Numbered from the stretch's first letter, positions 34,267-59,514 are shown. The stretch: DNA of 64,000 nucleotides from an uncultured Candidatus Saccharibacteria bacterium (GCA_965231155.1 OZ246418.1:42266-106265); one strand, 5' to 3'. Notes: a model not told the origin generated them from the sequence alone. Numbers and translations are program-made.

Positions 34267-34360
34267 CAGTCTAGTTTAGTATCGATGGACCAGGAGCTGT
34301 AATAAATGACACCCAATAACCTGGACGGGTTATTAAGAAAACTATACTCTTGTTCTCATA

Positions 34361-37300: not shown

Positions 37301-38335
37301 TGGGGCGGTATCATTTCTTCTCAAGGCTCTGGAATCCAAGCTTCTCTTGGAACTCCTCAAGAACTTAAAGAAAGCACCCTACTCCTAAGACGCGTCCCTC
37401 CATTGAAACTAGTTATTGATCCTGTTTCTATTATGACAATTCACGGTATGGGAATGGCCGATAGTCTGATAAAGATATTTGGACGACCGATAGTTACTTC
37501 CTCAACAGTTGATCTCATTCGAGTTGCTATTGCAGAGAAAGGAGGTCTCGGCTCAGACGGCTATATGAGCATCGCTAAGGAAGGAGACAAGTTCGTTAGA
37601 AACGAAGTTACTCCTGAGCAAATGACAAAACATATTCAGTATCTCGATTCGATTGCGAAATGGATTGAGAATAATTGCGACATACTTCCTTGTGAACCCG
37701 CTCTCTCTATAGACAGAGATATCCGAAAAAAGAACGAAGAGATTCTAGGCAGAGAATCCTATGAAACAATATTACTTGCGGCTCAACCTGGAAACCTTTT
37801 ATATTCTGACGATGAACGACTTCGCGCGCTCGCTCGGAATGACTACAATTGTACTCCTGGTGTTTGGACTCAACTCTTGATGATGGAGATGCGAGAGAAG
37901 AATGTCATTACAAAAGAAGCGTACGCACAAGCTATTCTTAAACTACTCAACTCTAAATATCGACACACAAGTGTTAGCAAGGAAGTGATGGTAGAAGCAG
38001 CAATTCAGGCCTCATGGAAGATCCGGGAGCCACTCACAAGCGTCCTCGCAAAACTTAAAGAAGGAGATGCTGATACCAAATCAGCCGCGGCAGTAAGCGC
38101 AGAGTTTCTTTTAGAGATTTGGAATAAAGAAAATGCTATGTCTCCCGAAGAGAAGGAAAATATGACGAGTTATCTAGCTGGAGTTCTGGTAGAGAATCGG
38201 TCGTTCACAGATGTGCTCTTCCAATTGAGAGCCGAGCTTGCACGAGTTTTCAAGAGTAATTCTCTTGAAAAAGAAGAGGTGATGTCGGCATTACGTGCTT
38301 GGGCCAAAGAGAGCGGTATCACTTACGAAATTTAG
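34361..38335 (+). CDS. Giant multi-domain protein: N-terminal Mrr-cat-like (PD-D/ExK) nuclease domain, central TPR array, C-terminal alpha/beta domain of unknown function (possibly PIN-like)
   Basis: N-terminus FEAFCCALVREVW...GRSGQKQNGLDVIA...EYWGLQSKNK matches Mrr_cat pattern (FE..L...G....RSG..DgGiDvia....vQcK). More than 12 TPR-like helical repeats in residues 230-760. C-terminal LKLVIDPVSI...LYSDDERL is suggestive of a PIN-like acidic pattern. No Walker A found. Confidence 0.55.
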   Translation: MFDASDLQLNPKEIDPPGSPDKFEAFCCALVREVWKDPTAGRIGRSGQKQNGLDVIARYNMGAEYWGLQSKNKDSLTGSLSRSDVEVEVEKAKGFTPPLKCFYIVTTLPRDQALQAIARDITSKNLSLGLFSVHFWFWEDICEHLLEHRELLYIYWPHLRPGTQTNPSSAPSSIKKGTEKILEDEANLRETNITNSGTGTINIAIGDGGTVTVIPDEKKEIHAKLDIIRNYIDENIPITALRELEQIKKDHWVTADSILKFRILTNIAASESKVGKESDAGKHFIEALQYNPNDEKALCNAATGYLIQEDKEEARKYIQKALMINPASDRAFSLTIYAAPTGAFIEELQKNIPSINLRSAPVSYAIGFVLRARGELEESIPWFRQAADMAPTDIEMSTSLAETLLQTIIDDQSVVFGQQLTEKTRNLLNEIDDIFKKAWNTVSNKEIKVYRTSWLLNRSLVNKLLSNYDIAIRTVDEALELRPDDLSVIKQKAILLFEGGRKDEALVFIKDIIKDTSKPEMVIPAAALLASTSHYDEALEILNSLKNKTDDKKAIAEANRMLVDLLGAVGKFEDARILSDQIMIAEPDNIGYYIDRANLHSAIKDTDGVQKYIDQAKIRANESSSKRELIELANALYKFEKFADASDIFTLVADKNTDSDLTRKLLNSYYRAGKLGEALKVIQALKAGTVSSNKYLVEMESSIYEEIGNWQKAKEICLEFFKKNPEDNEIKIRYAAALLRSSTTEDLKELDELLDSEIDTSDFSFNLWMQLINLYEFRGRVGRAIASAYEARRKFFNMPEAHIQYVGVFFRREKVLDPELNCLEAQENSAILLGDGLSNDWFILEKRKDSDLNKKEINPDHPLFSLLLGKKTGDEIIVQNTGPIPDKRKIQEIKHKFVYALHDSLNNFSSRFPTAGGLWGIKVGTTTDSSEGEAPNGIKLILDQVSKHDNFIHKVEDYYNKGRLTLGAFGKLIGKDVLTVWGGIISSQGSGIQASLGTPQELKESTLLLRRVPPLKLVIDPVSIMTIHGMGMADSLIKIFGRPIVTSSTVDLIRVAIAEKGGLGSDGYMSIAKEGDKFVRNEVTPEQMTKHIQYLDSIAKWIENNCDILPCEPALSIDRDIRKKNEEILGRESYETILLAAQPGNLLYSDDERLRALARNDYNCTPGVWTQLLMMEMREKNVITKEAYAQAILKLLNSKYRHTSVSKEVMVEAAIQASWKIREPLTSVLAKLKEGDADTKSAAAVSAEFLLEIWNKENAMSPEEKENMTSYLAGVLVENRSFTDVLFQLRAELARVFKSNSLEKEEVMSALRAWAKESGITYEI

Positions 38336-38340
38336 ATTCA

Positions 38341-39627
38341 CTATTCTAGGGTTAACTTCTTGTCTATTAAGATCAACTTACTTCTAAATGATTGCATCAA
38401 CTCTCGCTTCTCTTCTAAGATTCCATCTTTAAGTAGGTATTTCGCATACGATCGCAAGTCAGTTTTGTTTTGCTCTAACCTTTCTTTCTCGTCTAGGCCA
38501 AGCACCTTATTTCGAAAGTGACCGAACCGCTCCATCTCTTTTTCCAACTTCTGTCTTATGCCAATAGAATTGAGATCAATTTTATCCATAAGCTCCAAGA
38601 GTTGGGCAATTAAGACTTTTTCTTCAATATATCCGCCCTTGCAATTTCTATCTTTGAACCGAGTACAGCCATAATAGATATATTTTGCTATTGTTCCATC
38701 TTTAAGATTCTTATACTTCTCCTCTGCCGATATCCCCGAACCACAAAGCCCGCAGGACATAAGACGAGTGAATGCAAACTCTCCATGCTTTGTCCTGACT
38801 TTCCGCTGAAGCTGCAATTGCTTCTGTGTTGAGTCAAATAGTTCTTTTGTAATAATCGGAATGTGTTTTCCTTGAAACCATCTTCCACTCCCCCGAGGAT
38901 ATTCGTATCTTCCGTAGTAGAAAGTATTGTTAAAAAGAATGTACACATTACTCAACGTAAATGGTTTCCCATTTCTTGATACAAATTTTATTTCACGAAG
39001 CCATTCGTAAACTTTTCTGCCGCTCCAACCCGTTAAAGCAACTTTCTCGAACATTTCTTTTACAATAGGAGCGCGCTCAGGATCAATGAAAATATGGCCC
39101 TTCTCGTCGACATTTTTTGAATTCAGATAGCCAGTAGGCGCTACCGATGGCCAAAGCCCCATCTCGCACTTGGTTTTCAATCCCCTTTTTACATTTATGC
39201 TCTTATTGTCATTCTCTAGTTTTGCCTGGGAGCCAAGAATCATGAGGAGAAATTTCTCATTAGGATTATCAGTGAACCTCTGACTGTAAGTCTTGATCTC
39301 AACTAGTTTCTTTTGATCAAAGAGGTCAACAATTGCTCCGAGATCGCCTGCGTTGCGACTCAGTCGATCTGGATGCCAGACTAGGATACCATTGAACTTA
39401 TCCTCCCGAATGTCGTTAAGAAGCTTGTTGAATACTGGACGTTGTCCACAGTCTTTAGCTGAGTGTGATTCTCTGTAAATATCAGTAACGTTCAGATTGT
39501 CTCGCTGCGCCACCAACAACATCTCCTTTGTTTGAGAGTCTATCGAAAGAGCCTGCTTCTCCTCTGCTTCGCTAGATTTCCTCGCATAGAGGCAGTAACG
39601 GACCTCCTGAGCTATTTCTGTATCCAT
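38341..39627 (-). CDS. Large serine recombinase (resolvase N-domain + recombinase domain + zinc ribbon)
   Basis: YCLYARKSSEAEEKQALSIDSQ catalytic Ser region, then recombinase domain and C-terminal CGLCG...C..C zinc ribbon. 428 aa. Confidence 0.85.
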   Translation of the reverse strand: MDTEIAQEVRYCLYARKSSEAEEKQALSIDSQTKEMLLVAQRDNLNVTDIYRESHSAKDCGQRPVFNKLLNDIREDKFNGILVWHPDRLSRNAGDLGAIVDLFDQKKLVEIKTYSQRFTDNPNEKFLLMILGSQAKLENDNKSINVKRGLKTKCEMGLWPSVAPTGYLNSKNVDEKGHIFIDPERAPIVKEMFEKVALTGWSGRKVYEWLREIKFVSRNGKPFTLSNVYILFNNTFYYGRYEYPRGSGRWFQGKHIPIITKELFDSTQKQLQLQRKVRTKHGEFAFTRLMSCGLCGSGISAEEKYKNLKDGTIAKYIYYGCTRFKDRNCKGGYIEEKVLIAQLLELMDKIDLNSIGIRQKLEKEMERFGHFRNKVLGLDEKERLEQNKTDLRSYAKYLLKDGILEEKRELMQSFRSKLILIDKKLTLE

Positions 39628-41339: not shown

Positions 41340-41545
41340 GGCAGAGACCTAAACCCTCGGAGCAATCCGGCGGCATGGTCTACGAAGTCCCTTGGAAGAC
41401 ACTGAACCCCGCGTTCAGCGACTCTTCCAAGGGCCATACTGGGAAACTGGTATGGGGTCGTAAGACCTAGCTGATGCGGGGTTTAGTGTTTCTCCACCCC
41501 GCAAGACATAAACCACCTCTGTCGGGGTGAATACTATTTATTAAT
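41340..41545. ncRNA. Candidate structured non-coding RNA (nested hairpins, two GNRA tetraloops), strand undetermined
   Basis: Perfect 11-bp stem CCCTTGGAAGA...TCTTCCAAGGG enclosing inner 6-bp stem CTGAAC/GTTCAG (41389-41433); CCATACTGG-GAAA-CTGGTATGG (41434-41456); GGTC-GTAA-GACC; GCGGGGT...ACCCCGC. No ORF of at least 60 aa in a 370-bp gap between divergent genes. Confidence 0.3.
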
Positions 41546-42233: not shown

Positions 42234-42620
42234 TTAAGAGATTGGAGGATCATCTCTATCCTTATCCAGTCGCGCCACATCTTCGAGAAGTTTCTTGAAC
42301 AATTCAGTTGCCTCTCTCATCTGCGAATTATTTTCCTCCCGGGATCTCATGTAGCGAGGATGGTTGTTATCGAGATAATACTTCGTCGCGGGAAAACTCC
42401 CTTTTTGAGCCATGACTAAGAGATTCCCTTCCATGAGATCGTTCTTATTATCCCTGCCACGTCCTAGGGCCTTGCCCATCTCCCTATCAAATCGAGAATC
42501 CCCATCTCTCCATCGGTAAATATGCGCTCGCGAGATACCGGCACGCTTCGAAGCAATACTGATATTGGCAGTTTCCTCTAGGACCTCCAGAAACTTCTTT
42601 TTATCCGCATGGCTTTTCAT
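42234..42620 (-). CDS. HTH protein resembling phage terminase small subunit
   Basis: SIASKRAGISRAHIYRWRDGD helix-turn-helix. Size, basic charge and position directly downstream of a ParB-methylase are typical of phage packaging modules. Confidence 0.4.
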   Translation of the reverse strand: MKSHADKKKFLEVLEETANISIASKRAGISRAHIYRWRDGDSRFDREMGKALGRGRDNKNDLMEGNLLVMAQKGSFPATKYYLDNNHPRYMRSREENNSQMREATELFKKLLEDVARLDKDRDDPPIS

Positions 42621-43956
42621 CTATTTTTACCGCTTTTTCTCCCGTTAGTTTTTCCCATCTTTTCTTGATCACCTCGGCGTAGATTGGCTGCTTCTCCATG
42701 AGATAGCATCGTCGCTTCATCCGGGTGGCGGCAATAAGCGTACTGCCACTTCCTCCAAAGGGTTCAACGATCAGATCGCCACGCTTGGTAAGGACTTTGA
42801 TGTAGGGAATAAGAATCTCCAATGGCTTTGTCCCGAATATAATCCCCTGTCCCGAGCTTTTCTCATCTGATGCCTTGTACCCTATGAAATCAGTTGGCTG
42901 GATCTTCTTCCCATGTTCGTAGCCTTCCCACTGGGGCTTCCCGGAGATGGCATAGAGGGCCGTTTCATATTCTTCTTGGAGGAGCTGATCTTCTGGTTCC
43001 ATGTGCATGTTCTCTTTGTCTTCTGAACTTCCAACCATAGCGATATCGTGCTTAGAGAAGAACTTGTACTTGGCCGCGAACCCTTGGGTACGGTTAGGTA
43101 GGTGCCACACGATCATGTTTTTGACCTTCCAGTACTTTTCCATCTCACCCCAGATGATCCGGAGATTCTTCCAATTCTCGTAGACAATGATGTGGAAGTT
43201 CGGCTTGGCAATCTCGGCGATGTTCGCCATCCAGAGTTCAGTGAAGTTGGATGGCAAGGTATCGGTGCCAATATATCTACGATCACGCTTCAAGCCAAAG
43301 CCTTCGATTGCTTCACCATGCTTCTTCTTGCCCTTCAGATAGTCGAGAATGTACGGTGGGTCAGTGAAACACATGTCGGCTCGTTCCTCCCCCATGAGCT
43401 TCAAGACGTCATCTCTCTCCATACTGTCCCCGCACATGAGACGCGAACCGCCAAGATCATAAACATCACCAAGCTTGGTCTCGATACTGTTGATATCCAA
43501 CTTCTCTAGTTCTTTCTGGATATCAAAGACTTCTGGCGTTTCTTCTTCCGGAAAGATGTCATCTAACTCTTCACTTGAGAAACCAATGTCCTTCAGTAAC
43601 GACTCATCGAACTCGGCCAACAAGGAGAGGTCGAACTCTCCGGTATTCTTGTTGAGCCGGATGATCAACTCTTCTTCTTTCTTCAGATCAGCAATGTGGA
43701 CATAAACGACGGGGATCTCCTCGAGGCCCATCGACTTCGCAACCTCGAAACGGAAGTTGCCGCCCACGATCACCCCCTCCCGACCCTCGGCCGAGTTGAC
43801 GATCAAAGGATCAACTAACCCATGCTGCTCGATACTTTCCCTCAACTGCGCCGTGGCCTCCTTAGACCAGACTCGTGGATTCCGTTCCGGATGTCGAAGG
43901 GACGACAAGGGAACATAACTAACCTGCAGCTTATCGCTGCTTTGTGTTGTGTACAT
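42601..43956 (-). CDS. ParB-like nuclease domain fused to beta-class N4/N6 DNA methyltransferase
   Basis: N-terminal ParB/Srx motif (GGNFRFEVAKSMG); MTase motif IV FTDPPY precedes motif I VEPFGGSGST (beta-class order). Confidence 0.8.
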   Translation of the reverse strand: MYTTQSSDKLQVSYVPLSSLRHPERNPRVWSKEATAQLRESIEQHGLVDPLIVNSAEGREGVIVGGNFRFEVAKSMGLEEIPVVYVHIADLKKEEELIIRLNKNTGEFDLSLLAEFDESLLKDIGFSSEELDDIFPEEETPEVFDIQKELEKLDINSIETKLGDVYDLGGSRLMCGDSMERDDVLKLMGEERADMCFTDPPYILDYLKGKKKHGEAIEGFGLKRDRRYIGTDTLPSNFTELWMANIAEIAKPNFHIIVYENWKNLRIIWGEMEKYWKVKNMIVWHLPNRTQGFAAKYKFFSKHDIAMVGSSEDKENMHMEPEDQLLQEEYETALYAISGKPQWEGYEHGKKIQPTDFIGYKASDEKSSGQGIIFGTKPLEILIPYIKVLTKRGDLIVEPFGGSGSTLIAATRMKRRCYLMEKQPIYAEVIKKRWEKLTGEKAVKIDEKPCG

Positions 43957-48558: not shown

Positions 48559-49224
48559 CTATACCCGATTTCCAAATATAGGCTTTTTCTTTTTTGCCAC
48601 AATGAAATTATTTAAACGATAAGAAAATACTCTCTCTATATTAAATCCTGCCCCTTCTAAGAGCTTGCCCAACTCAGTTTGATCGTACACATGTTTTTGA
48701 ATCTCGAAAATTGGTCCCAGATATCGGAAAATAAGTTTTCCCAAAAAAGTATCGGCTCCGGGATCGGCCAAAAGAAATCTCCCCTCCCCTCGTAATACGC
48801 GAAATATTTCTCGAAGCGTCTGCTCCGGATTCCAAAAGTGGTGAAAAGCCTCGGATGAAATAACAAGATCGAATGATTCTTTTTCAAAGGGCATAGACTC
48901 CACACCGCCCAGGACGAAGGAAGTAGTGGCGGTGCCCTCTGTCTTCCTCTTTGCCTCGGCGACCATCTGAGGCGAGGCGTCGATTCCCACAAACTGACTC
49001 TCTGGATATGCCCTTGCTAAACGGGCAAGAACCTCTCCCGTACCACAAGCCACATCAAGCACGCGAGACTGCCTGTGAATCAAATGCTCCCCCTCGATTA
49101 TTTCAATTAGTTTCTTATACAAAGGTTCAAAATAAAACCTGGAAATACGTGAGTCGTACTGGCTAGCCATGCGATTAAATAACGCCGTGGTCTTACTTTC
49201 AAATTTTATTTTTTGGTCGTCCAT
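48559..49224 (-). CDS. Class I SAM-dependent methyltransferase
   Basis: Motif I VLDVACGTGEV, motif post-I GIDASPQMV. Confidence 0.75.
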   Translation of the reverse strand: MDDQKIKFESKTTALFNRMASQYDSRISRFYFEPLYKKLIEIIEGEHLIHRQSRVLDVACGTGEVLARLARAYPESQFVGIDASPQMVAEAKRKTEGTATTSFVLGGVESMPFEKESFDLVISSEAFHHFWNPEQTLREIFRVLRGEGRFLLADPGADTFLGKLIFRYLGPIFEIQKHVYDQTELGKLLEGAGFNIERVFSYRLNNFIVAKKKKPIFGNRV

Positions 49225-49227
49225 GTT

Positions 49228-49662
49228 TTACCAGTTTTTACAGCACTCAATAATTTTTTGACCAATTCTCCGCCAACGAGGATGCGCGTATAAAACAAAG
49301 ATGCCACCGAATATTATCCATAACCCGACAAGGAGAGGCATGGTTAAATTTATATCCGTCGTTTGCTTTCCGATCAGCCAGTAGGCAGTCGCAAAGAAAG
49401 TAAGGAGTGTCGGAAATTTGAAGATCTGATACTTCTCGGAAGCCTTAGAAAAAAGATAGTACATTCCCCCGACTGCGCTTCCCCCGAGGAGAATACCAAG
49501 AAGAATCGGATCGCCCTCTTCGTAAAACCAGTAATTATAGAGGAGAATGAGCCACGTCAAACTAACCGAAATACAAAGGGCGCATATTTTTTTACTAACA
49601 ATCTCTCGGGCAAGTAACCCCAGAAGAAAAAAACCGATAAGAATGACGACGGCAAAGGTCAT
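49228..49662 (-). CDS. Membrane protein with CxxC (CALC) and C-terminal CC motifs
   Basis: Four TM segments. Cys pairs possibly metal/thiol-active. Adjacent to copper cluster. Confidence 0.35.
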   Translation of the reverse strand: MTFAVVILIGFFLLGLLAREIVSKKICALCISVSLTWLILLYNYWFYEEGDPILLGILLGGSAVGGMYYLFSKASEKYQIFKFPTLLTFFATAYWLIGKQTTDINLTMPLLVGLWIIFGGIFVLYAHPRWRRIGQKIIECCKNW

Positions 49663-50180
49663 AGGAAGATTTGGATGAGCGCTGAGACTATGATCAAGAG
49701 CGCGAAGGTAATGCTTACTCCTTGATACGGCAAGAACTTTCCCTTTCTTAAAGTGGTTACAAGTCGGCTCACGTACGGCGCGATCAGAATGATTACCGCA
49801 CCAATCGCCACCCCCACCAAGAAAAGATCGATGGTATAGGTATTATGAAATAACGTTCCATATTTTCCCCACCAACTGATGTAGAGCGGATCGTAATCCC
49901 GGATCAATGGCATGATGGGGATAATCGTGCCCAAGAAAATTAAAATGGAAAGGATACAATACTGCGCCGGAATATACTTTTTCTTTGGCAGCCCAGCAAG
50001 CCACATACCCAAGGCTAACGCGAACGCCCCAATCATGACGCCAACAATCACCGAAGAAATTCCCAGAGATACCGCGAGAACCGCGAGCACGCCGGCTCCA
50101 GCTGTACACAAGGGACAGTGGGCCAGAGCCAACTTAGGGAAAAACAACAACGATAGAGGTAGCCAAAGAAATTTCTTCAT
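49659..50180 (-). CDS. Membrane protein with N-terminal HCPLC motif
   Basis: Signal/TM then CPLC. Four further TM segments. 4-nt overlap with preceding gene. Confidence 0.35.
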   Translation of the reverse strand: MKKFLWLPLSLLFFPKLALAHCPLCTAGAGVLAVLAVSLGISSVIVGVMIGAFALALGMWLAGLPKKKYIPAQYCILSILIFLGTIIPIMPLIRDYDPLYISWWGKYGTLFHNTYTIDLFLVGVAIGAVIILIAPYVSRLVTTLRKGKFLPYQGVSITFALLIIVSALIQIFL

Positions 50181-50182
50181 AG

Positions 50183-50674
50183 TTAGTATTTCATGAACTC
50201 ACCGATCGAACCGTCTTTTCCCAGGGCAAAGATAGTCCACTCTCCGGTTTTCTGACCAGGCATACCAGGTGATCCCGCAGGCATGCCGGGCAAAGCGATA
50301 CCCTTGATATCCGGCTTTTCGGTCAGTAGTTTATTAATGATCTCAAGCGGAATATGGCCTTCGATCACATAGTCTCCGATCACCGTCGTATGACAGCTCT
50401 GTAGATTGGCTGGAATACCATACTGGTTTTTGATCGGAGTAAGATCAGGAAGATTTTCTATTTTCACCGACAGGCCTTCGTGCTTCAGATATTCAGCGTA
50501 GACCTGACAACAGCCGCAGGTGGGAGTTTTGTAGACGGTCGCCTGAAGGGCTAATCCCACAGTACCAGTTTTTGGAGCCTCCTGACTATTCGTAAAGGTA
50601 CCGATAAGAACCAGACCGCCGATCACCACCACCGCTCCGAGAAACAAGATTTTGTTTGTAGCATATTTTTTCAT
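50183..50674 (-). CDS. DUF411-like periplasmic metal-binding protein
   Basis: Signal anchor, then TCGCC motif characteristic of DUF411 proteins, often found in copper-resistance loci. Met/Pro/Gly-rich GMPAGSPGMPG segment. Confidence 0.5.
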   Translation of the reverse strand: MKKYATNKILFLGAVVVIGGLVLIGTFTNSQEAPKTGTVGLALQATVYKTPTCGCCQVYAEYLKHEGLSVKIENLPDLTPIKNQYGIPANLQSCHTTVIGDYVIEGHIPLEIINKLLTEKPDIKGIALPGMPAGSPGMPGQKTGEWTIFALGKDGSIGEFMKY

Positions 50675-50687
50675 GAGTGAGTGATTT

Positions 50688-51290
50688 TTATTTGGACCAA
50701 GCCTTTTCCCAACTCCGCATCATCTCAATCTCTTTGGACTGCGAGGTGATAATCTGATCGGCCAATTCTTTCATCTCCGCCCGATCGGTTGTCGAGGCAA
50801 GCATCCGGGCCATCATCACCGCCATCTCGTGATGCGGAATCATCTGTCGGATAAACTCTAAGTCAAAATCTTTGGCGCTACTTAAAACATCTAAATCTCC
50901 ACTCATACTATCCATATGCATCATACCGCCACCCATCATACCCATACTTTGATTCGTTGCCGGAACCTGCGCGCCAAACCAATTCTCGTACCATCCTTTC
51001 ATACTCACGATCTCGCGCTGTTGTGCTTCAATAATTCCATTCGCCAAAGAAAGTATCTCCGGCCGTTTTGATTTTTTGAGCGCCAGTTCGGCCATCGCGA
51101 TCGCCCCGTCGTGATGCGGAATCATCTGCTCAATGAAATGCTGATCGATATTTCCCATCATTGATCCGCTTGAACCTCGATAGAAACCTCCCATCATTCC
51201 TCTCATTCCCCATCCACCGAAGAGCAGTGGCGTAAGAAGTACGCCGACTAACACTCCTCCTAAACCAACGATTATGTTTTCTTTTGTCAT
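50688..51290 (-). CDS. DUF305 protein (tandem duplicated, copper-resistance associated)
   Basis: Two copies of the MIPHHxxA...M motif (MIPHHDGAIAMA and MIPHHEMAVMMA). Met/Gly-rich linker. Confidence 0.7.
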   Translation of the reverse strand: MTKENIIVGLGGVLVGVLLTPLLFGGWGMRGMMGGFYRGSSGSMMGNIDQHFIEQMIPHHDGAIAMAELALKKSKRPEILSLANGIIEAQQREIVSMKGWYENWFGAQVPATNQSMGMMGGGMMHMDSMSGDLDVLSSAKDFDLEFIRQMIPHHEMAVMMARMLASTTDRAEMKELADQIITSQSKEIEMMRSWEKAWSK

Positions 51291-51301
51291 GTTTTTATTA
51301 T

Positions 51302-53287
51302 TTATAAAGTTTTCTGTCGCAGTAGCACAGCATTCACCGCCACAATTACTGTGGAGAGGGACATGAGTGCTGCTGCTAATGCTGGCTCAAGAAACAATCC
51401 CCACGTCGCGAATACTCCAGCAGCTAACGGAATGGCAATCACGTTGTACCCCGTAGCCCAGAAAAGATTCTGGATCATCTTCCGATAGGTCAGACGAGAA
51501 AGTTTGATGATCTTCACAATGTCTCTCGGATCATTTCTGACGAGAATTATTCCCGCTGATTCAATGGCCACATTCGTTCCTGCGCCAATTGCTATCCCCA
51601 AGTCTGCTTGTGTGAGCGCCGGAGCGTCATTGATCCCATCCCCCACCATAGCGACCTTTTTGCCCTGTTCTTGAAGCAGTTTCACTTTTTCCGATTTATC
51701 TTTCGGCATAACGCGGGCAAAGTAGTCATCAAGGTTCAATTCTTTGGCCACCCAGCGAGCGACATCCTCAGCATCTCCCGTAATCATCATCACCTTTACT
51801 CCTGTGCTCTGAAGGTCACGGACCGCATCCCGGGATTCTTCGCGAATAATATCGGCGAGAGCGATAGCACCAACAAGCGCATCATTTTGGATAACATACA
51901 CAACAGTTTTTCCTTCTTCGGAAAGCGTGGCGACTTTCCGCTTGAACTCCTCTCCTCCTGCAATATGCTTACCTAGAATCAACGACTCGCTCCCCACCAC
52001 TACTTTATTTCCGCCGACTGTCGCGGCCGATCCCTGTCCGGGTAAACGAGTAAATTCTTCGATTCGCGGCAAAGAAATGTTTCTCTTCTCGGCTTCGCGA
52101 ATGATTGACTTGGCGATGGGATGCTCCGACTGGCTATCAACGGCGGCGGCCAAAGCGAGAACTTCTTCCTCGCTCTTGCTTTCTGCGGGAATGATATTAG
52201 AAACTCCGAACTCACCGCGAGTGAGCGTTCCTGTCTTATCGAATAGAACCGTATCAATATTTCTGGCCGCTTCGAGCGCCAAACGTTGCTTTACCAAAAA
52301 TCCATTCTGAGCAGCTTTCGTTGTAGATATAGAAGCCACTAACGGAATGGCCAAACCAAGTGCATGGGGACAAGCGATGACCAAAACCGCGACCATCCGC
52401 TCGATCGCAAACGAAGGCTCGGCAAAGAAAAGCCAAGCAATTAAAGTAGCTAAGCCGGTCGCGATAGCAATGATCGTGAGGTAATATGCGGCTCTATCTG
52501 AAAGTATCTGCAAGCGAGACTTCGAGGCTTGAGCTTCGGAAACAAGCCGCATCACTCCAGCTAAAAATGTATGCTCACCAATTTTATTTATTTTAACGGT
52601 GAGGGAGCCATCACCATTTACTGTTCCAGCGATTACCTCATCTCCTTCTTTTTTAGAGACTGGCTTTGATTCTCCGGTCGCTACTGACTCGTTTACTTCG
52701 GAGGTTCCTTCTAGGACCATACCATCAGCAGGAATTGTGCTTCCAGGTCGGACCAAAACCATATCTCCTTCCTTGAGTTGATCGAGAGGAATCACCACTG
52801 TCTTACCATCACGAATAACCTCGGCTTGATCCGGCAGAAGTTTAGAAAGCTCCTTCAAAGCACCTTGAGCACCGGAGACTGCTCGCATTTCGATCCAGTG
52901 TCCAAGAAGCATGATCGTAATCAGAGTTGCTAGTTCCCAGAAAAGAGTATGCGATTCTCCTCTTAAGAAAATGTAAAGACTATAGATATATGCTACCGAA
53001 ATCGCGAGAGAAATCAGGGTCATCATTCCCGGCAGTTTGGCCTTGATTTCGTTCTGGGCGCTTTTTATAAATACCCACCCTCCATACAAGAAGATGATTG
53101 AAGAAAGTATCGGAGAAATAAACTGCCACCCAGGAAACAAAGGTGGTTGCCAGTTAAAAAGCATCGGGACGATATCCGAGTAAAGTAATACCGGAATCGT
53201 TAATACAAAAGATACGAGGAATTTCTTTTTGAAGGCTTCCGTATGATGCCCAGCGTGCTTATTGAACTTATGTATATTGTGGTCCAT
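51302..53287 (-). CDS. copB: Copper-translocating P1B-type ATPase (CopB-like, His-rich N-terminus, no HMA domain)
   Basis: CPH motif in TM6 (IACPHALGLA), DKTGTLT phosphorylation site, GDGINDAP hinge. N-terminal HKFNKHAGHH. Confidence 0.9.
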   Translation of the reverse strand: MDHNIHKFNKHAGHHTEAFKKKFLVSFVLTIPVLLYSDIVPMLFNWQPPLFPGWQFISPILSSIIFLYGGWVFIKSAQNEIKAKLPGMMTLISLAISVAYIYSLYIFLRGESHTLFWELATLITIMLLGHWIEMRAVSGAQGALKELSKLLPDQAEVIRDGKTVVIPLDQLKEGDMVLVRPGSTIPADGMVLEGTSEVNESVATGESKPVSKKEGDEVIAGTVNGDGSLTVKINKIGEHTFLAGVMRLVSEAQASKSRLQILSDRAAYYLTIIAIATGLATLIAWLFFAEPSFAIERMVAVLVIACPHALGLAIPLVASISTTKAAQNGFLVKQRLALEAARNIDTVLFDKTGTLTRGEFGVSNIIPAESKSEEEVLALAAAVDSQSEHPIAKSIIREAEKRNISLPRIEEFTRLPGQGSAATVGGNKVVVGSESLILGKHIAGGEEFKRKVATLSEEGKTVVYVIQNDALVGAIALADIIREESRDAVRDLQSTGVKVMMITGDAEDVARWVAKELNLDDYFARVMPKDKSEKVKLLQEQGKKVAMVGDGINDAPALTQADLGIAIGAGTNVAIESAGIILVRNDPRDIVKIIKLSRLTYRKMIQNLFWATGYNVIAIPLAAGVFATWGLFLEPALAAALMSLSTVIVAVNAVLLRQKTL

Positions 53288-53299
53288 AGATCTAAAAAT

Positions 53300-53569
53300 T
53301 TATTTCTTCTTTGATCGTTTATAGACGGTCATAATCTCCTTCATAGCCTGTGCCTCCTTACCACTCTTCATCTGCTCAACCACATGAGTCGTGAGGTGAT
53401 TTTCTAATAAAAGATCTTCGACACTCGATAAGGCCTCTTTGATCGCCGAAGACTGAGTGATGATGTCTATGCAATATTTCTCCTCATCGACCATGCGCTC
53501 CAATCCCCGTACCTGTCCCTCGATCCGATGCAACCGAGAAGTTAATTTATTTTTAATGTCTTTTCTCAT
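53300..53569 (-). CDS. csoR: CsoR/RcnR-family metal-sensing repressor
   Basis: RLHRIEGQVRGLERMVDEEKYCIDIITQSSAIKEA: CsoR signature with Cys (C-x-D-I) and the His/Cys ligand set. Confidence 0.8.
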   Translation of the reverse strand: MRKDIKNKLTSRLHRIEGQVRGLERMVDEEKYCIDIITQSSAIKEALSSVEDLLLENHLTTHVVEQMKSGKEAQAMKEIMTVYKRSKKK

Positions 53570-53574
53570 AACCC

Positions 53575-53599
53575 CATTATACCCCCCTAGGGTATAATG
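53575..53599. promoter_or_regulatory. 25-bp palindrome CATTATACCCCCCTAGGGTATAATG: CsoR-box-like operator (ATACCC-N-GGGTAT) with symmetric -10 TATAAT hexamers on both strands (divergent promoter)
   Basis: Perfect 10-bp arms around a CCCTAGGG core, seen directly. Sits 6 nt upstream of the csoR start and about 180 nt upstream of the first cassette gene on the + strand. Confidence 0.5.
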
Positions 53600-53616
53600 T
53601 CAACATCCTGTTAAAA

Positions 53617-53756
53617 CTGTCTCATTTGTCTCATTTAGCCCTAGACCGAGACGGGTCAGTTATTACCCTATTCTGACCCCCAAAGAACCCTTATACTGAT
53701 TGAAAGTTCCTGGTACTAGACCGAGGAACACAGCCACCTTGAGATAGGTTCCTCGG
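53617..53756 (+). repeat. Leader repeat copy 1 (modules W gtctcatttgtctcattt, X gaccgagacgggtcag, Z tatactgattgaaagttcctggtactagaccgaggaacacag...ccaccttgagataggtt) upstream of gene 53777
   Basis: Roughly 140 nt, highly similar to 59288-59470 upstream of unrelated gene 59515. Ends in hairpin CCTCGG-gtc-CGAGG that pairs with the GAGGAG RBS. Confidence 0.5.
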
Positions 53757-53776
53757 GTCCGAGGAGCATTAAAGAT

Positions 53777-54439
53777 ATGTTTGAATGGCTAAAAGATAAA
53801 ACAATCGGAAAGTTCAGGCGCTGGAAGTCTCGACTATTTCTACGTATTATCGGAGAACTACATAAAGAACGCATGCGCGAACGCTTAAAAGACGTCCCCG
53901 CAGAACTGAAAGAGTATCATGCCAGAGAGACCATAATGAATGGAAATAGCACCGCACTGCATAATCTTTATAGAAAGGCCAAAGATAGCAAAAAGTTTCA
54001 GGAGGCATTTTTGTATTTTTTCTATGAGTTTGAAATAAATCTTAAGCATATGATCATGTCCGAGATGATGGTTGCAAACAGCATGGAGGCACTCAAACGT
54101 GACGAGAATAATCATTTCCCCATATATTCGGAAGATGAGGTATTAAAAATTCAAAAAATTGGACATATTTCCACTCTGATAGAAAAATTTTCCTCCGTTC
54201 ATGGTGATGAGATTGAAGATAGCTTAAAGGCCATCAACGACGCAAGAAATTTCATCATTCACAACATGCTAAAGGAGGAAATGAACGAAGGGCAGATTGA
54301 AAAATCATTTGAATACTTCTTCGTAGCCACCAATGGTCACATCAATAAAGCTTATAGATTTTTTGATAAAACGCTCGAAGAAAGACCCGAAAAAATACTG
54401 GCTACAGTGAAAAAGATTGCAGTAGAGAAGATACGCTAG
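53777..54439 (+). CDS. Hypothetical alpha-helical protein with HEPN-type R-N-x3-H motif
   Basis: C-terminal KAINDARNFIIHNML (RNxxxH). Mostly helical composition. Cassette 1 of the array. Confidence 0.4.
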   Translation: MFEWLKDKTIGKFRRWKSRLFLRIIGELHKERMRERLKDVPAELKEYHARETIMNGNSTALHNLYRKAKDSKKFQEAFLYFFYEFEINLKHMIMSEMMVANSMEALKRDENNHFPIYSEDEVLKIQKIGHISTLIEKFSSVHGDEIEDSLKAINDARNFIIHNMLKEEMNEGQIEKSFEYFFVATNGHINKAYRFFDKTLEERPEKILATVKKIAVEKIR

Positions 54440-54463
54440 AATTCCGTCCGAGGAGCATCAGAA

Positions 54464-54823
54464 ATGGAAGATTCAATATCATTGCAACTCGCAAAACAGT
54501 ATCTCGGAAAAGAGGTTGAGGTGACTATGGACCGACCGCTTGGAACTAAACATCCCAAGCATGGCTTTATATATGAAGCGAACTACGGTTTTATTGAAGG
54601 AGTAGAAGCTCCTGACGGAGAAGATCTGGACGCCTACTACCTGGGAGTGCAAACACCTCTTCAACAAGCAAAAGGAGTTTGTATTGCAATAGCCCATCGC
54701 AGAGACAATGACGACGACAAACTGATTGTCGTTCCCAAAGGAACTAAATTAACAGATGAGCAGATTATGCTTGCAATCCATTTCCAAGAGCAGTGGTTTG
54801 ATACAGGAATCGTTAGAAAATGA
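54464..54823 (+). CDS. Small protein with degenerate inorganic-pyrophosphatase-like acidic motif
   Basis: APDGEDLDAYY resembles family I PPase D-x-D-x-x-D signature in degenerate form. 119 aa. Confidence 0.3.
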   Translation: MEDSISLQLAKQYLGKEVEVTMDRPLGTKHPKHGFIYEANYGFIEGVEAPDGEDLDAYYLGVQTPLQQAKGVCIAIAHRRDNDDDKLIVVPKGTKLTDEQIMLAIHFQEQWFDTGIVRK

Positions 54824-54868
54824 CCCGTCCGAGGAGGGTCAAAAGGTAAGATAAAGAAACTTAAGAAA

Positions 54869-54914
54869 AGCCTCTGGTGGTCTCACTTTTTAAATATCCG
54901 AGACCGAGGAGGCC
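54869..54914 (+). repeat. Y-module hairpin copy 1 (CCTCTGGTGGTCTC-actttttaaatatcc-GAGACCGAGGAGG) pairing RBS with upstream CCTC
   Basis: One of three near-identical copies (also at about 55605-55650 and 56735-56773), each 10-20 nt upstream of a different start codon. Confidence 0.5.
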
Positions 54915-54922
54915 AGACGGCC

Positions 54923-55558
54923 ATGGGCCTTGAACAACGTAATAACGGAAGCGATATACTTAAGCTAATGGAACCAGAAATTAAACTTGTAGTCGAAGAA
55001 TCATTAACAAAAGTAAAGCGCATTTTCAACGTGGAAGATGTTTCAGCTCAAGTCGAAGAAGATCCCTCCCAGGTGATTCCTGAAACCGGCGCAGGCGGCT
55101 CCACTCCCGACTCACATACCATCTGCGTCTATTACGACTCCAACAATAAAAATCTTAGGAAAAATTTTCGGGAGGAAATCAAGAGCACGGTAACGCATGA
55201 ATTCCACCATGCAATCAGGAATAGGACCTACAACTGGAAGGAAGATACACTGCTTGGCGCGATAATCAGCGAAGGACTTGCCGATCACTTTGATATAGAA
55301 GTAAACAGTGGAAAACCAAAACCTTGGTCTGTTGCCCTAACTGATACTGAGCTAGAAAGAGTTGAAGAAATTGCTACCCCTGAATTGAATAGTCGCGAAT
55401 ACAACCACGCGGATTGGTTCTTCGGTTCGAAAAAAAGAAATATTCCCAGATGGGCAGGGTATGCGATGGGTTTTAAACTTGTGGGCGAATACCTGAAAAA
55501 GACCGGCAAGAAAGCTTCTGCGTTAGTTGCCGAACCTGCGAGATCTTTCTTTGACTAG
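54923..55558 (+). CDS. Putative zincin-like metallopeptidase (HExxH)
   Basis: THEFHHAIRN HExxH motif with downstream Glu/Asp-rich segment. Roughly DUF2268-like arrangement (inference). Confidence 0.35.
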   Translation: MGLEQRNNGSDILKLMEPEIKLVVEESLTKVKRIFNVEDVSAQVEEDPSQVIPETGAGGSTPDSHTICVYYDSNNKNLRKNFREEIKSTVTHEFHHAIRNRTYNWKEDTLLGAIISEGLADHFDIEVNSGKPKPWSVALTDTELERVEEIATPELNSREYNHADWFFGSKKRNIPRWAGYAMGFKLVGEYLKKTGKKASALVAEPARSFFD

Positions 55559-55604
55559 TGCTCGAGATGGATTGGAACGGTAGCATAAAGAAACCTCAGA
55601 AAAA

Positions 55605-55650
55605 CCTCTGGTGGTCTCACTTTTAAAATATCCGAGATCGAGGAGGCCAG
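55605..55650 (+). repeat. Y-module hairpin copy 2
   Basis: cctctggtggtctcacttttaaaatatccgagatcgaggaggccag; followed by an X-like gagaccgagacggatca segment. Confidence 0.5.
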
Positions 55651-55727
55651 CACGAGTCAGCGCGGTATCGTATGAGACCGAGACGGATCATATTTTGCTA
55701 ATTCTTGAAAAAGATTAGAATGGGAGC

Positions 55728-56156
55728 ATGTCTCAGGATTTGCCACAAAAAGAATTGATAATCGCCGTAGTGGAAAAAGACAGCGCTTTATTAATGCGAA
55801 AAAAGCCAGCTGGATCTCCTCCGTATGTAGAAACCTGGTATTCGCTGGGATGCGATCGAATTCCCGGCCAGGATGATCCAACCACTATAAAGAATTATTT
55901 GAAATCAGAAGTTGGCATCGACGTTGAAGTTGATCCTAAATCGATTCCCTTTGGAACTGAAATTAAAGAAGATCACGATGGCATTACCAAGAATTTTATC
56001 TACGTTAACCTCCTTTGTCATTATCTCGGCGGCACACCCAAGATACCCAAAGGCGCTGAAAAAATTGAATGGCTACCAAAAAATAGTTTGGGATCATTTG
56101 ATATCGTACCACCCTCAATAAATCTTTTTAAATCTCTTGGGTATCTAAATTCTTAA
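55728..56156 (+). CDS. Hypothetical protein, weak NUDIX-like layout
   Basis: ELIIAVVEKDSALLMRKK...G(x5)...SEVGI weakly resembles a Nudix fold start. Low confidence. Confidence 0.25.
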   Translation: MSQDLPQKELIIAVVEKDSALLMRKKPAGSPPYVETWYSLGCDRIPGQDDPTTIKNYLKSEVGIDVEVDPKSIPFGTEIKEDHDGITKNFIYVNLLCHYLGGTPKIPKGAEKIEWLPKNSLGSFDIVPPSINLFKSLGYLNS

Positions 56157-56157
56157 A

Positions 56158-56688
56158 ATGCGCAAAAGAAATCTTGGGAAGCTTGAACAATACGATTATA
56201 TCGATGACGAATTTATTGGAGAAACCAGCCCTGATTATATCGAAGCTATCGGCCTATTTGTGCTTGAATTTAGCGCTCTGGAACATGAAATAAATTTACG
56301 AATTGCAGATCAAATTAACGATAGAGCACACTTTCAAGGATATCAGGTCATTGAACTTTTATCCTCAAAAGATAAGATTGATTTATTTTCGAGATGGGTT
56401 GGCGCTTATATGGTCATGGGCAATAGTAAAAAGAAAACTCGATTTAATCGCCTCGTTCAAAAGCTTCGAGAATTAAATGCATTTCGAAATAAAGTTCTGC
56501 ATGCCAATTGGATGTCTGCGGCTAAGGATGGCACAGTTAGAACTCGTATCGTCATCAACGAGGGAGAAGGCGCTGTTCGCTTCGAGAGAACAAAAATCAC
56601 TCCAACATTAATTAATAAAAAATCGGAAGAATGCTCCAGGGCGAGAGATGAGCTCGATGAGATTATGGAGGGAGCTTATAACAGCTAG
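56158..56688 (+). CDS. Hypothetical protein with HEPN-type R-N-x3-H motif
   Basis: LRELNAFRNKVLHANWM (RNxxxH), very similar in local context to the motif in gene 53777 (N-[DA]-[AF]-R-N-x-[IV]-[IL]-H-[NA]-N). Start codon overlaps previous stop (TAAAATG). Confidence 0.4.
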   Translation: MRKRNLGKLEQYDYIDDEFIGETSPDYIEAIGLFVLEFSALEHEINLRIADQINDRAHFQGYQVIELLSSKDKIDLFSRWVGAYMVMGNSKKKTRFNRLVQKLRELNAFRNKVLHANWMSAAKDGTVRTRIVINEGEGAVRFERTKITPTLINKKSEECSRARDELDEIMEGAYNS

Positions 56689-56734
56689 ACCGAGACGGGT
56701 CAGTTACTCCCCTACTACGACCCTCAGAAAACCC

Positions 56735-56773
56735 TTTGGTGGTCTCACTTTTTAAATATCCGAGACCGAGGAG
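56735..56773 (+). repeat. Y-module hairpin copy 3, preceded by X-module copy (56686-56736)
   Basis: tagaccgagacgggtcagttactcccc...aaccctttggtggtctcactttttaaatatccgagaccgaggag. Confidence 0.5.
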
Positions 56774-56877
56774 TCCCATTATAAAAAACGGCGTATTCAG
56801 GTTTTGAATGACTAGACTTAATGTCATTTATATCTCATAATTTCCCCAGCTTTTCCAAAACCTTAGGGAGGACACTC

Positions 56878-58188
56878 ATGGCACAAGAAAACACTGCGGT
56901 TCAAGACGCTGGAGCTTCCCCAATGGAAGCGGATCTTCGAAACATTCCCATTGATCTCATCGATCCAGATCCTCGTCAACCCCGCACCGACTTCGACGAA
57001 GAAGCCCTAAATGCGCTGGCCGAGAACATAGAGGCAGTAGGGGGCTTACTCCAAACCGTTGTAGTTCGTCCATCACCTACTGATCCGGGTCGCTTCATGC
57101 TGATCGGTGGCGAACGGCGATACCGTGCTTCGAAAAAAGCCGGGTCAAGCACTCTTCCTTGCATCGTCCGGCAGGGCGATAGGATTCCCTTCGTCATGTC
57201 TATGGTTGAGAACATGCTCCGGGCAAGTCTCAACCCCATCGAAGAGGCGCGCGCCTTTAGACGATGCCACGACGAGTATGGGATGTCGTATCACGAGATT
57301 GACCGAACTTTCAAATTCAAACGAAAGAAATCGGAAAACGTGGTGCGCCTTCTGGAACTGCCGGAAGAAATTCAGCAAATGGTGGAGAACGGCACATTGC
57401 CGCCAAGCTATGCGCTGGGTTTACATCAGTACGCTGAAACCCGAGACGTCGTCGCCATGGCCTACGCCCTTGCCGATGGACGTGATCCCGGGGTTGTCTT
57501 GCCAAAACGGAAGACAAAATATGTTAAAGGTGAGCCGAAACCAACGGAGTTTCGAGAGTATTTCCTGTTAGCCAAACAGAGTGATCGTGTGAGAAGACTC
57601 GCCGATGCACTTCTGGCACACGACACAGGGATACAGCGTCGGGCGTGGATGAAGAACTCACGCACGAGCAGAACGAACCTTCAACTCAATCTTCGTGCCA
57701 TGGCAATTGCCTTCGGGCAAATGACTGCTCGACTCGAAGATCTCGAGAAACCATCAACAGTAACGTTCTCGCCTGCGTCAGAAGCCAAGTCGAGCCCTCT
57801 TACTCGGCCGACAACTCCGCCCAAGAAACCGACGCAGGAAAAATGGTTACCTCTCCCGGACGAAAGCACCTTCGAAAAAATCGCTGGAGTAATTCGATTG
57901 GTCTCCTTTGATCGCAGGGGAGGTAGACTTGCCTACCTGAGCGAAGAACGTCTCAAGCGGAAGGGATGCTCACCGGAACTCCTCCTCGAAGCCTTACGAG
58001 TTTTTCGAGATCAGTGGAATCGAGAACCGGCCACAGGGAATACTCAGGTAGAACGAGAATTCCTGGGGTTTCTCAAGGGAACTCGCGAAAATTCCGGGTG
58101 TAACCAGTTTTTCAGTTTTATCGGAAAACTCAGAGATCTAGATACCTCCGAAGATCCAGTTCCTCTGAGCCCCCTATCAGACGACTAA
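56878..58188 (+). CDS. ParB/Srx-domain protein with long Pro/Thr/Arg-rich C-terminal extension (GC-rich gene)
   Basis: LIDPDPRQPR...LLQTVVVRP...LIGGERRYRASKKAG: ParB N-terminal domain with GERRxRA motif. RBS AGGGAGG 7 nt upstream of ATG at 56878. Codon usage distinctly GC-rich. Confidence 0.65.
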   Translation: MAQENTAVQDAGASPMEADLRNIPIDLIDPDPRQPRTDFDEEALNALAENIEAVGGLLQTVVVRPSPTDPGRFMLIGGERRYRASKKAGSSTLPCIVRQGDRIPFVMSMVENMLRASLNPIEEARAFRRCHDEYGMSYHEIDRTFKFKRKKSENVVRLLELPEEIQQMVENGTLPPSYALGLHQYAETRDVVAMAYALADGRDPGVVLPKRKTKYVKGEPKPTEFREYFLLAKQSDRVRRLADALLAHDTGIQRRAWMKNSRTSRTNLQLNLRAMAIAFGQMTARLEDLEKPSTVTFSPASEAKSSPLTRPTTPPKKPTQEKWLPLPDESTFEKIAGVIRLVSFDRRGGRLAYLSEERLKRKGCSPELLLEALRVFRDQWNREPATGNTQVEREFLGFLKGTRENSGCNQFFSFIGKLRDLDTSEDPVPLSPLSDD

Positions 58189-58212
58189 AACCCTCATCGT
58201 GAGGGTTTTTTA
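58188..58212. terminator. Rho-independent terminator shared by convergent ParB-like and sigma54-activator genes
   Basis: AAAACCCTCA-tcg-TGAGGGTTTT followed by TTATT. Begins at the ParB-like stop codon. Confidence 0.8.
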
Positions 58213-58240
58213 TTACTGAAAATAAAAATCCGTCATAAGG

Positions 58241-59206
58241 TTATGACGGAAGTTGAACTGGTGAACCGCTACTTTGATACTCACTCAAACGGTTATAAAG
58301 AGTCTTCAAAGAAATTCCCAGGCTTGCTGATGCCGCTTGCTTATTGCCTTTATGGTATTCAAGCGCTGCCAAGATGTGTTCTCTCTCGATATCAACCAGC
58401 GGGCGCGGGGTATGAGATGGTGCAAGTTGATTCTTAACCGGAGAGCCTCCTCGAACACGATCCGGAATATGCTCAAGACCAACTTCCCTTTCAGAAAGTA
58501 CGGTTGCCCGCTCCATAACGTTCAGCAGCTCCCGAACATTGCCGGGCCAGCTGTAACGCAGGAGATGAGTCAAGGCATCCTTGGCGATAGTCTTCCGATA
58601 GATCTCGAGTCTGTTCCTGATCAAGACTTCAATATCTTCTGGACGATCGCGCAACGCAGGCATGGTCAGATCGAGAACGCTCAGACGATAAAAGAGATCT
58701 TCTCGGAACGTTTGTTCTCGGACCATTTTCCACAGATCCCGATTTGTTGCTGCAATAATACGAACATCGGTCTTCTGCGCCTGATCGCTGCCCAAGGCGA
58801 AAATCTCACCATTATCTAGGAAGCGAAGTAGCTTTGATTGAAGCGACAAGGACAACTCCCCTATCTCTTCCAACAAAACCGTACCCCCATTAGCAGTCAT
58901 CAATACTCCTGGCCTATTTTCTAACGCTCCGGTGAACGACCCTCGAGTATGACCAAAAGCCATGGAATGCCAGAGATCTTCTTGGTGGATATATGTTCCA
59001 TCAACCACGGCCAGTGATTTGTGCTCTTGCCCTCGAGGACTTTTTTCGTGGATAAACTGAGCCAGTGCGGACTTGCCTGTGCCCGTTTCTCCGCCAATCA
59101 GTATGACACTACCAGTTTGAGCAAAACGTTCTGCTCGTGCCAAAGCTTCCTGCATGAGACGACTCGCCGCAACCCATTTCATATGAACTCCCCTCTCATC
59201 GAACAA
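58241..59206 (-). CDS. Sigma-54-dependent transcriptional activator, AAA+ core plus Fis-type HTH, no sensory/receiver domain (PspF-like)
   Basis: GETGTGKSALAQ Walker A, GSFTGAL (GAFTGA equivalent), GTVLLEEIGEL Walker B, RIIAATN, FREDLFYRL, WPGNVREL, C-terminal ASLGISLKTLYNRL HTH. Probable true start at internal MKWVAASR (59182). Confidence 0.85.
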   Translation of the reverse strand: MFDERGVHMKWVAASRLMQEALARAERFAQTGSVILIGGETGTGKSALAQFIHEKSPRGQEHKSLAVVDGTYIHQEDLWHSMAFGHTRGSFTGALENRPGVLMTANGGTVLLEEIGELSLSLQSKLLRFLDNGEIFALGSDQAQKTDVRIIAATNRDLWKMVREQTFREDLFYRLSVLDLTMPALRDRPEDIEVLIRNRLEIYRKTIAKDALTHLLRYSWPGNVRELLNVMERATVLSEREVGLEHIPDRVRGGSPVKNQLAPSHTPRPLVDIEREHILAALEYHKGNKQAASASLGISLKTLYNRLSEYQSSGSPVQLPS

Positions 59207-59287
59207 CTGCCTCTATCTAAGAGGAAATACTTTCTCCTGTCAAACACAAAGAGTCACTCAGTGTCGATATCGTTGCAAGTCTCAAAA

Positions 59288-59470
59288 ACCGTCTCGTTTG
59301 TCTCATTTTTACCCGACCAAGGTGGGTCAGCAACTCCCCTGTTCCTACCCAAAAAACCCTTACACTGATTGAAAGTTCCCAGTACTAGACCAAGGAACAC
59401 AGTAACTGAGCGAGAGCGAAGGAGTACTGAGGTTAGTAGGCCGAATGTGCCACCTTGAGATAGGTTTCCA
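59288..59470 (+). repeat. Leader repeat copy 2 (W-X-Z modules with a ~45-nt insertion) upstream of gene 59515
   Basis: gtctcgtttgtctcattttt...gggtcag...aacccttacactgattgaaagttcccagtactagaccaaggaacacag...ccaccttgagataggtt; compare 53617-53756. Confidence 0.5.
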
Positions 59471-59514
59471 GTGCTTCTATTCGGGAACGGGCTCTTCTAA
59501 ACTATAATGGAAGA

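Follow-up and report, generated by a model that had tools for sequence, protein, structure and literature searches.

A probable CsoR operator inside the consensus promoter of a predicted leaderless copper operon from a Candidatus Saccharibacteria genome

Analysis of a 64,000-nucleotide stretch of DNA from an uncultured Candidatus Saccharibacteria bacterium, referred to as a whole as the window, indicates that an inverted repeat located immediately upstream of a csoR gene is probably the operator of the adjacent CsoR-family repressor. The putative operator lies within a leftward, consensus sigma-70 promoter, and the -10-like hexamer that appears in mirror image on the opposite strand does not seem to be a maintained promoter. 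The features of the site are as follows.

53575..53599, no strand assigned: extended inverted repeat, the full symmetric extent of the putative operator (arms CATTATACCC and GGGTATAATG, spacer CCCTA)
53579..53595, no strand assigned: core CsoR box ATACCCCCCTAGGGTAT (TAC at 53580-53582, nine intervening bases, GTA at 53592-53594)
53598..53603, minus strand: -35 hexamer TTGACA of the csoR promoter, the last two bases of which (CA) are the outermost bases of the repeat
53576..53581, minus strand: csoR promoter -10, TATAAT, which begins with the terminal TAT of the CsoR box
53593..53598, plus strand: mirror-image TATAAT, a candidate rightward -10 (best -35 match 2/6, no TGn)
53569..53569, minus strand: predicted transcription start, the A of the csoR ATG, from the geometry read in the sequence
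53300..53569, minus strand: csoR, 89 aa, CsoR/RcnR family (PF02583, Trns_repr_metal; E = 4.1e-27, residues 6-84)

The plus strand at 53575-53599 reads CATTATACCCCCCTAGGGTATAATG and its reverse complement reads CATTATACCCTAGGGGGGTATAATG; because the two differ, the site is not the perfect 25-bp palindrome of the original prediction. Instead, it consists of two 10-nt arms (53575-53584 and 53590-53599) that are 100% complementary, lie 5 nt apart and flank an asymmetric center, CCCTA. The symmetry of the arms does place a TATAAT hexamer on each strand (plus, 53593-53598; minus, 53581-53576), as originally noted, and the TAC-N9-GTA dyad of the box encloses a C6/G3 tract. The motif ATACCC-N5-GGGTAT has a single exact occurrence in the 64-kb window, where an exact match to the 12 palindromic bases is calculated to be expected ~0.004 times; with two mismatches permitted, ~1.4 chance matches are expected, and no further CsoR boxes were found within the window. 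A search for inverted repeats (arms of 10 nt or longer, spacer of 8 nt or shorter) yielded 14 matches at approximately nine places in the window, compared with 1.0 +/- 1.5 in the shuffled window. Comparable repeats are not rare in this DNA and, therefore, the size of the repeat alone proves little. Judging from the sequences compared, the non-randomness of the repeat consists in its sequence, in its position 6 nt upstream of the csoR start, and in the presence of the box in 76 of the 79 csoR loci described below, with a chance expectation of ~2% per locus.

The minus-strand promoter matches the sigma-70 consensus at 12/12 positions in a promoter scan (TTGACA, 53603-53598; 16-nt spacer; TATAAT, 53581-53576) and is one of only three perfect 12/12 promoters in the window, compared with 0.05 expected. 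This match supports, at the level of sequence, the leftward promoter for csoR-copB that was originally predicted to overlap the box. The 16-bp spacer is filled by the inverted repeat, one arm of which holds the whole -10 hexamer; the box with its extended arm overlaps the -35 hexamer by two bases, and its terminal TAT begins the -10. The gap between the -10 and the csoR ATG comprises only six bases, GGGGTT, and therefore the canonical +1 would be the A of the start codon, such that the csoR-copB-DUF305-DUF411 mRNA is predicted to be leaderless. The position of the start codon is consistent with the homologous proteins, given that nearly all of the best 120 csoR homologs are 89-90 aa long and start from the same Met, and no earlier in-frame start of csoR was found. 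The other two perfect promoters of the window precede leaders, one of them with a clear AGGAGG; thus, the leaderless arrangement appears to be specific to csoR here rather than a habit of the genome.

The genes that follow csoR on the minus strand comprise a predicted copper operon:

51302..53287, minus strand: CopB-type P1B ATPase, 661 aa, with a CPH motif, DKTGT and a His-rich N-terminus, and with no HMA domain
50688-51290, minus strand: DUF305 protein
50183-50674, minus strand: DUF411/CopG-like protein
49659-50180 and 49228-49662, minus strand: two membrane ORFs, which together with the DUF305 and DUF411 genes complete the conserved operon (49228..51290)
48559-49224, minus strand: methyltransferase, next after the membrane ORFs

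The ATPase gene begins 12 nt past the csoR stop codon, so that the two genes share one operon, and the ATPase contains five His among its first 20 residues. The csoR gene is, accordingly, genetically linked to a copper exporter, with the P1B ATPase accompanied by DUF305 and DUF411 proteins; no copZ chaperone gene was seen in the operon of the window. The order of the genes in the operon is the same in two close relatives, L083 and L088. At 89 aa, CsoR of the window conforms to the PF02583 fold of ~90-100 aa, and the solved structures most closely related to it are those of CsoR proteins (4m1p, 4adz, 3aai and 2hh7, with 4m1p and 4adz the best). The RLxR DNA-binding motif reads RLHR (R12-L13-H14-R15), with R12 and L13 invariant in the alignment. 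The exact protein is known from metagenome assemblies only, and the great majority of its relatives belong to Patescibacteria (CPR) genomes. The ligand positions are C33, H58 and H62 (x-C-H-H), which departs from the canonical Cu(I) fingerprint, x-C-H-C, in that H62 aligns to the second Cys of 4m1p and 4adz. This His in place of Cys at the second ligand position is seen across the clade (mostly Patescibacteria), and H62 is invariant in 28/28 aligned sequences. The second-shell residues Y32 and E78 are likewise invariant in the 28 aligned sequences and, by a constant offset, we infer that they map to Y35 and E81 of the Mycobacterium tuberculosis protein.

The conservation of the site was assessed in a set of 80 retrieved loci from different GTDB species, with 70 nt upstream of each csoR read; the counts cover 79 csoR loci, namely, 78 from Patescibacteria-dominated MAGs and the window itself. 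TAC-N9-GTA is present upstream of csoR in 76 of the 79 loci and the remaining three contain near variants. The distance from GTA to the start codon is 10-14 nt in 70/79 loci, with 33 at 10 nt, as in the window, and 26 at 12 nt. The core ATACCCC/GGGGTAT is almost invariant among the promoters of the family. The forward -10, which begins with the TA of GTA, retains TAnnnT in 62/67 distinct family promoters, and a forward -35 matching at least 5/6 positions at a spacing of 16-18 nt was found in 52/70 loci (mean score 4.76). Conservation of the box, the spacing and the forward hexamers implies that the leaderless design with the operator inside the promoter is a conserved module of ~40 bp. Outside the core, the bases at flank positions 2 and 3 co-vary from one arm to the other, being paired in 36/67 and 37/67 loci where column composition predicts 25 and 22 (p <= 0.001), which suggests that the extended symmetry is a property of the operator itself; the left flank tends to mirror the variant of the right -10, as in TATACT/AGTATA, TATTAT/ATAATA and TATCAT/ATGATA. 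In the closest relatives, L083, L086 and L088 (CsoR identity 96-79%), the genes flanking the operon differ in every case and, by inspection, the sequences of the close relatives cease to match at the -35 hexamer.

The site closely resembles characterized type-2 CsoR operators, which are G-tract pseudopalindromes with the consensus ATATACCCCTNAGGGGTATAT, contain a TAC-X9-GTA dyad that is essential for CsoR binding, and in Streptomyces lividans bind two CsoR tetramers per site (PMC3902906). The G-tract pseudopalindrome and the TAC-N9-GTA dyad are shared by the window and the type-2 operators of S. lividans, B. subtilis, S. aureus and L. monocytogenes (PMC3902906), as are the location upstream of csoR and a copper ATPase gene and the RLxR motif of the regulator. 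The window sequence TTATACCCCCCTAGGGTATAA can be compared with this consensus and with the S. lividans copZA2 site TATACCCCCTAGGGGTAAG, which is set apart from it chiefly by a central TA displaced by one base. The window is distinguished from the type-2 operators by the asymmetry of the G/C tract (C6-TA-G3) and by perfect symmetry that extends 4-5 nt further out, and from the type-2 systems by a regulator with x-C-H-H rather than x-C-H-C, by the Patescibacteria-type host and by an operon in which copZ is not seen. The site is an AT-rich inverted repeat with TAC-N9-GTA around interrupted G/C tracts, located at the regulator's own promoter, adjoining a PF02583 gene and conserved in the family. 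Its identification as a CsoR-type operator, proposed in the original prediction, thus agrees with both the type-2 consensus and the TAC-N9-GTA rule (PMC3902906), as far as sequence comparison can indicate.

The closest operator sequences are the CsoR boxes of S. lividans, C. glutamicum and B. liaoningense, and the closest experimentally studied architecture is that of NreA from Mesorhizobium (nreAXY; PMC12724321). As in the window, the repressor gene comes first in the nre operon and the dyad operator occupies the spacer between -35 and -10; the regulatory region measures 39 bp, compared with ~40 bp in the window, the arrangement is conserved across strains, and the nreA mRNA is leaderless by 5'-RACE (PMC12724321), as is predicted for the window mRNA. 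NreA differs in being a nickel sensor. In Bradyrhizobium liaoningense csoR-cueA, the box TATACCC-N5-GGGTATA overlaps with its ends the -10 hexamers on both strands, similarly to the window; the 91-aa CsoR carries its ligands at positions 33, 58 and 62, the same as in the window, and the csoR mRNA is leaderless by 5'-RACE (PMC5057107). The bidirectional promoter at this box was demonstrated by 5'-RACE, qRT-PCR and lacZ fusions (PMC5057107): the divergent gene encodes a copper ATPase, both promoters have a -35, and both starts are mapped. In the window, unlike B. liaoningense, csoR and the ATPase gene belong to one operon, with csoR first; the rightward direction lacks a -35, and the divergent gene has no relation to metals. 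CsoR from Thermus thermophilus (PDB 3aai; PMC11672702) resembles the window protein in having His in place of the second Cu(I) Cys, in the second-shell Tyr and Glu, and in the linkage to a copper exporter; it differs in that it possesses an additional N-terminal His5, which the window protein lacks and which leads to the reading H-C-H-H in PMC5057107, and in that it goes with CopA/CopZ rather than with a CopB-type pump.

To the right of the promoter, the following features were detected:

53613..53735, plus strand: conserved element of ~125 nt, outside the operator, between the promoter and the ORF at 53777
53777..54439, plus strand: divergent ORF, 220 aa, with a GAGGAG Shine-Dalgarno sequence; a single-member protein cluster
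54842-54916, 55576-55650 and 56704-56778, plus strand: three copies of a 75-nt intergenic repeat, 71-89% identical, with a GGTCTC...GAGACC hairpin

The 125-nt element runs AAAACTGTCTCATTTGTCTCATTT ... TAGACCGAGGAACACAG from 53613. A second copy is located at 59285-59405 (plus strand), with no CsoR box upstream, and a third in L088, a relative with 79% CsoR identity, at ~4815-4950 (minus strand), where the csoR promoter lies on one side of it and an unrelated NUDIX gene on the other. The element contains a tandem TGTCTCATT repeat and several short hairpins, and each copy is upstream of a different gene. No Rfam match was found for the element; alignment and folding of the three copies gave a weak signal (z = -2.5, with 3 pairs showing double changes among the 3 sequences), and a metagenome scan with the short pattern GTCTCNTTTGTCTCATTT returned more than 120 matches, almost all of them chance matches and none with the rest of the element. 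By eye, a TATAAT (59493-59498) at the end of the second copy overlaps one ATG and is located 7 nt before another (59493-59511, plus strand).

Five small plus-strand ORFs are located at 53777-56688, some of them separated by the 75-nt repeats. No Pfam family was assigned to the first, the ORF at 53777, which gave a sub-threshold HEPN_Apea match (E = 0.02) over an Rx4H motif. Rx4H motifs reminiscent of HEPN nucleases, ARNFIIHN and FRNKVLHAN, are found in the ORFs at 53777-54439 and 56158-56688 (plus strand), and of these two, only 53777-54439 gives the weak HEPN_Apea match. All occurrences of the short motif AGACCGAG fall between 53.6 and 56.8 kb and are on the plus strand. The 75-nt repeats part small, unrelated ORFs in the manner of cassette boundaries, but without attC core sequences: neither RYYYAAC nor GTTRRRY was found in the seven intergenic intervals at 53600-59508. 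No integron integrase or tyrosine recombinase was detected among the ORFs scanned, which are part of the ORFs of the window and include a large serine recombinase; the flanking genes encode a ParB-like protein and a sigma-54 activator. An integron cassette array as the right-hand context was therefore rejected, there being no canonical attC cores and, among the ORFs scanned, no IntI, and the "cassette array" of the original prediction is not supported.

The wider region that contains the copper operon looks like an integrated island, with the following features:

34196-34266: tRNA gene
after the tRNA, in the region 34196-39627: 1324-aa TPR protein with the PIN domain of the TPR-GreAB-C-PIN system
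38341-39627: large serine recombinase
42601-43956: ParB-DNA methylase fusion

In addition, a full-length match to the LOOT RNA family (RF03000) is present at 41346-41468 (plus strand; 77.5 bits, compared with a gathering score of 46.4).

The alternative that had been put forward originally is that one CsoR box serves two back-to-back promoters, one of which faces right. Under this scenario, a copper-inducible plus-strand transcript would start at ~53605 and pass through the 125-nt element into the ORF at 53777 and the small genes. We consider this doubtful, although the plus-strand hexamer is a perfect TATAAT and the concept has a precedent: a CsoR-box promoter with overlapping -10 elements was shown by 5'-RACE and reporter fusions in B. 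liaoningense (PMC5057107), so the idea of a bidirectional box is not new. When 53540-53800 was scanned under relaxed settings, the mirror TATAAT ranked first (8/12) among the plus-strand -10 candidates in the 207-nt intergenic region between csoR and the ORF at 53777, where no better promoter for this ORF, that is, none above 8/12, was found on the plus strand; nor was a sigma-54 -24/-12 element found by eye in the 125-nt element. The upstream gene is divergent in the window, L083, L086 and L088, and three of these four closest loci (the window, L083 and L088) combine the mirror TATAAT with the divergent neighbor. However, the promoter scan called no plus-strand promoter at this hexamer: the rightward -35 position reads TAACCC/AACCCC (2/6), and GGG stands at the place of the TG of an extended -10. 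TATAAT hexamers number 44 in the window, the clear promoters of this genome have both hexamers, and the rival leftward promoter on the same DNA scores 12/12. Compared with what a bidirectional divergon would show, -10-like hexamers overlapping both ends of the box are present, on the plus and minus strands, but the -35 matches 6/6 leftward and at most 2/6 rightward, with no extended -10, the ORF at 53777 has no metal-related family, and the divergent neighbors differ in every relative. Across the family, the mirror hexamer keeps TAnnnT, with the critical final T, in 28/67 loci versus 62/67 for the forward hexamer; the mirror -35 averages 2.77/6, compared with 2.53 for random sequence and 4.76 for the forward -35; and, by rough ORF-based gene calls, the mirror hexamer shows no enrichment next to divergent upstream genes (11/29, versus 17/38 for tandem genes). 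Furthermore, no CsoR box precedes the 125-nt element in its second copy (59285), the downstream ORF has no metal-related feature, and in Bradyrhizobium the divergent gene is a copper pump with -35 elements in both promoters. The rightward copper-responsive promoter is thus not supported, given the lack of a -35 and of TGn, the poor conservation of the mirror hexamer and a downstream gene without a metal link. The second TATAAT, as judged from the sequences, is probably a by-product of operator symmetry, appearing on the plus strand because this symmetry runs 4-5 bases past TAC and GTA and mirrors the real -10. That the mirror TATAAT is a CsoR-gated promoter, such that copper stress would produce a transcript through 53613-53735 into variable, small, partly HEPN-like genes, seems quite unlikely to us; were it true, metal stress would be coupled to an accessory or defense-like gene array in a Patescibacteria genome, but the comparative evidence is against it.

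A different concern is the inducer, that is, whether the site is a genuine operator of a CsoR-family repressor that responds not primarily to copper but to Ni/Co, Zn/Cd or several metals. This appears very unlikely. It could be suggested by H62 in the place of the second Cys of the Cu(I) triad, by the H-C-H-H motif of RcnR, the Ni/Co sensor, and by the response of T. thermophilus CsoR, with the ligand motif C-H-H, to several metals (PMC5057107, PMC11672702). However, the RcnR-type N-terminal His at position 3 is absent from the window protein, which begins MRKD; Tyr32 and Glu78 of the second shell, a feature typical of Cu(I) sensors, do not vary in the alignment; the regulated genes form a copper set (the CopB-type ATPase with its CPH motif and His-rich N-terminus, DUF305, and the CopG-like DUF411); and the operator is of the CsoR type, with an interrupted G-tract. 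Given x-C-H-H in place of x-C-H-C, copper specificity rests on the gene context and on the T. thermophilus subgroup, for which the selectivity itself is not settled; a review regards the variant as probably sensing Cu(I), perhaps with greater promiscuity (PMC11672702). Finally, it is extremely improbable that the repeat, rather than being a protein operator, serves to terminate transcription or marks a recombination or junction site bordering a mobile copper module. The divergence of the relatives' sequences at the -35, right beside the repeat, and the island-like region with its tRNA, serine recombinase and repeats are compatible with a junction, but the motif stands at a fixed distance from csoR in 70 loci and in many genomic contexts, which fits a cis-regulatory site and not a junction. 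A terminator is rejected given that no T-run follows the repeat on either strand and that the terminator scan made no call. The search for a structured RNA was negative as well, with no Rfam match at or near the site at the gathering threshold or at E <= 1; since the leftward transcript is predicted to start beyond the repeat, it would not contain the repeat.

With the repeat read as the operator of the adjacent CsoR, a mechanism can be proposed in which the binding, the copper response and the transcription start are modeled on characterized homologs, whereas the geometry and the conservation come directly from the DNA compared. Metal-free CsoR would occupy the box, possibly as two tetramers per site by analogy with S. 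lividans, and block RNA polymerase. Copper bound at C33, H58 and H62 would free the repressor from the box, and the strong promoter would then fire, with +1 at the A of the csoR AUG, to yield a leaderless polycistronic mRNA that encodes CsoR, CopB, the DUF305 and DUF411 proteins and the two membrane proteins. Newly made CsoR would close the loop, resulting in negative autoregulation.

As such, the site is an ordinary, well-precedented autoregulated metal switch; the mildly new point, at the level of sequence, is the apparent conservation of the module across so many Patescibacteria-type genomes. The ~40-bp module recurs in ~70 csoR loci, mostly from Patescibacteria MAGs; it joins a -35 of consensus sequence to a CsoR box whose end provides the TAT of the -10, followed by a start codon that coincides with +1 or lies no more than two bases from it. 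This recurrence is sequence-level evidence that uncultured bacteria with reduced genomes use canonical sigma-70 promoters, and it suggests that at least one leaderless mRNA is translated in these bacteria, although other genes of the window have Shine-Dalgarno leaders. The module also is a candidate for a compact, portable copper switch and comes with a natural set of operator variants.
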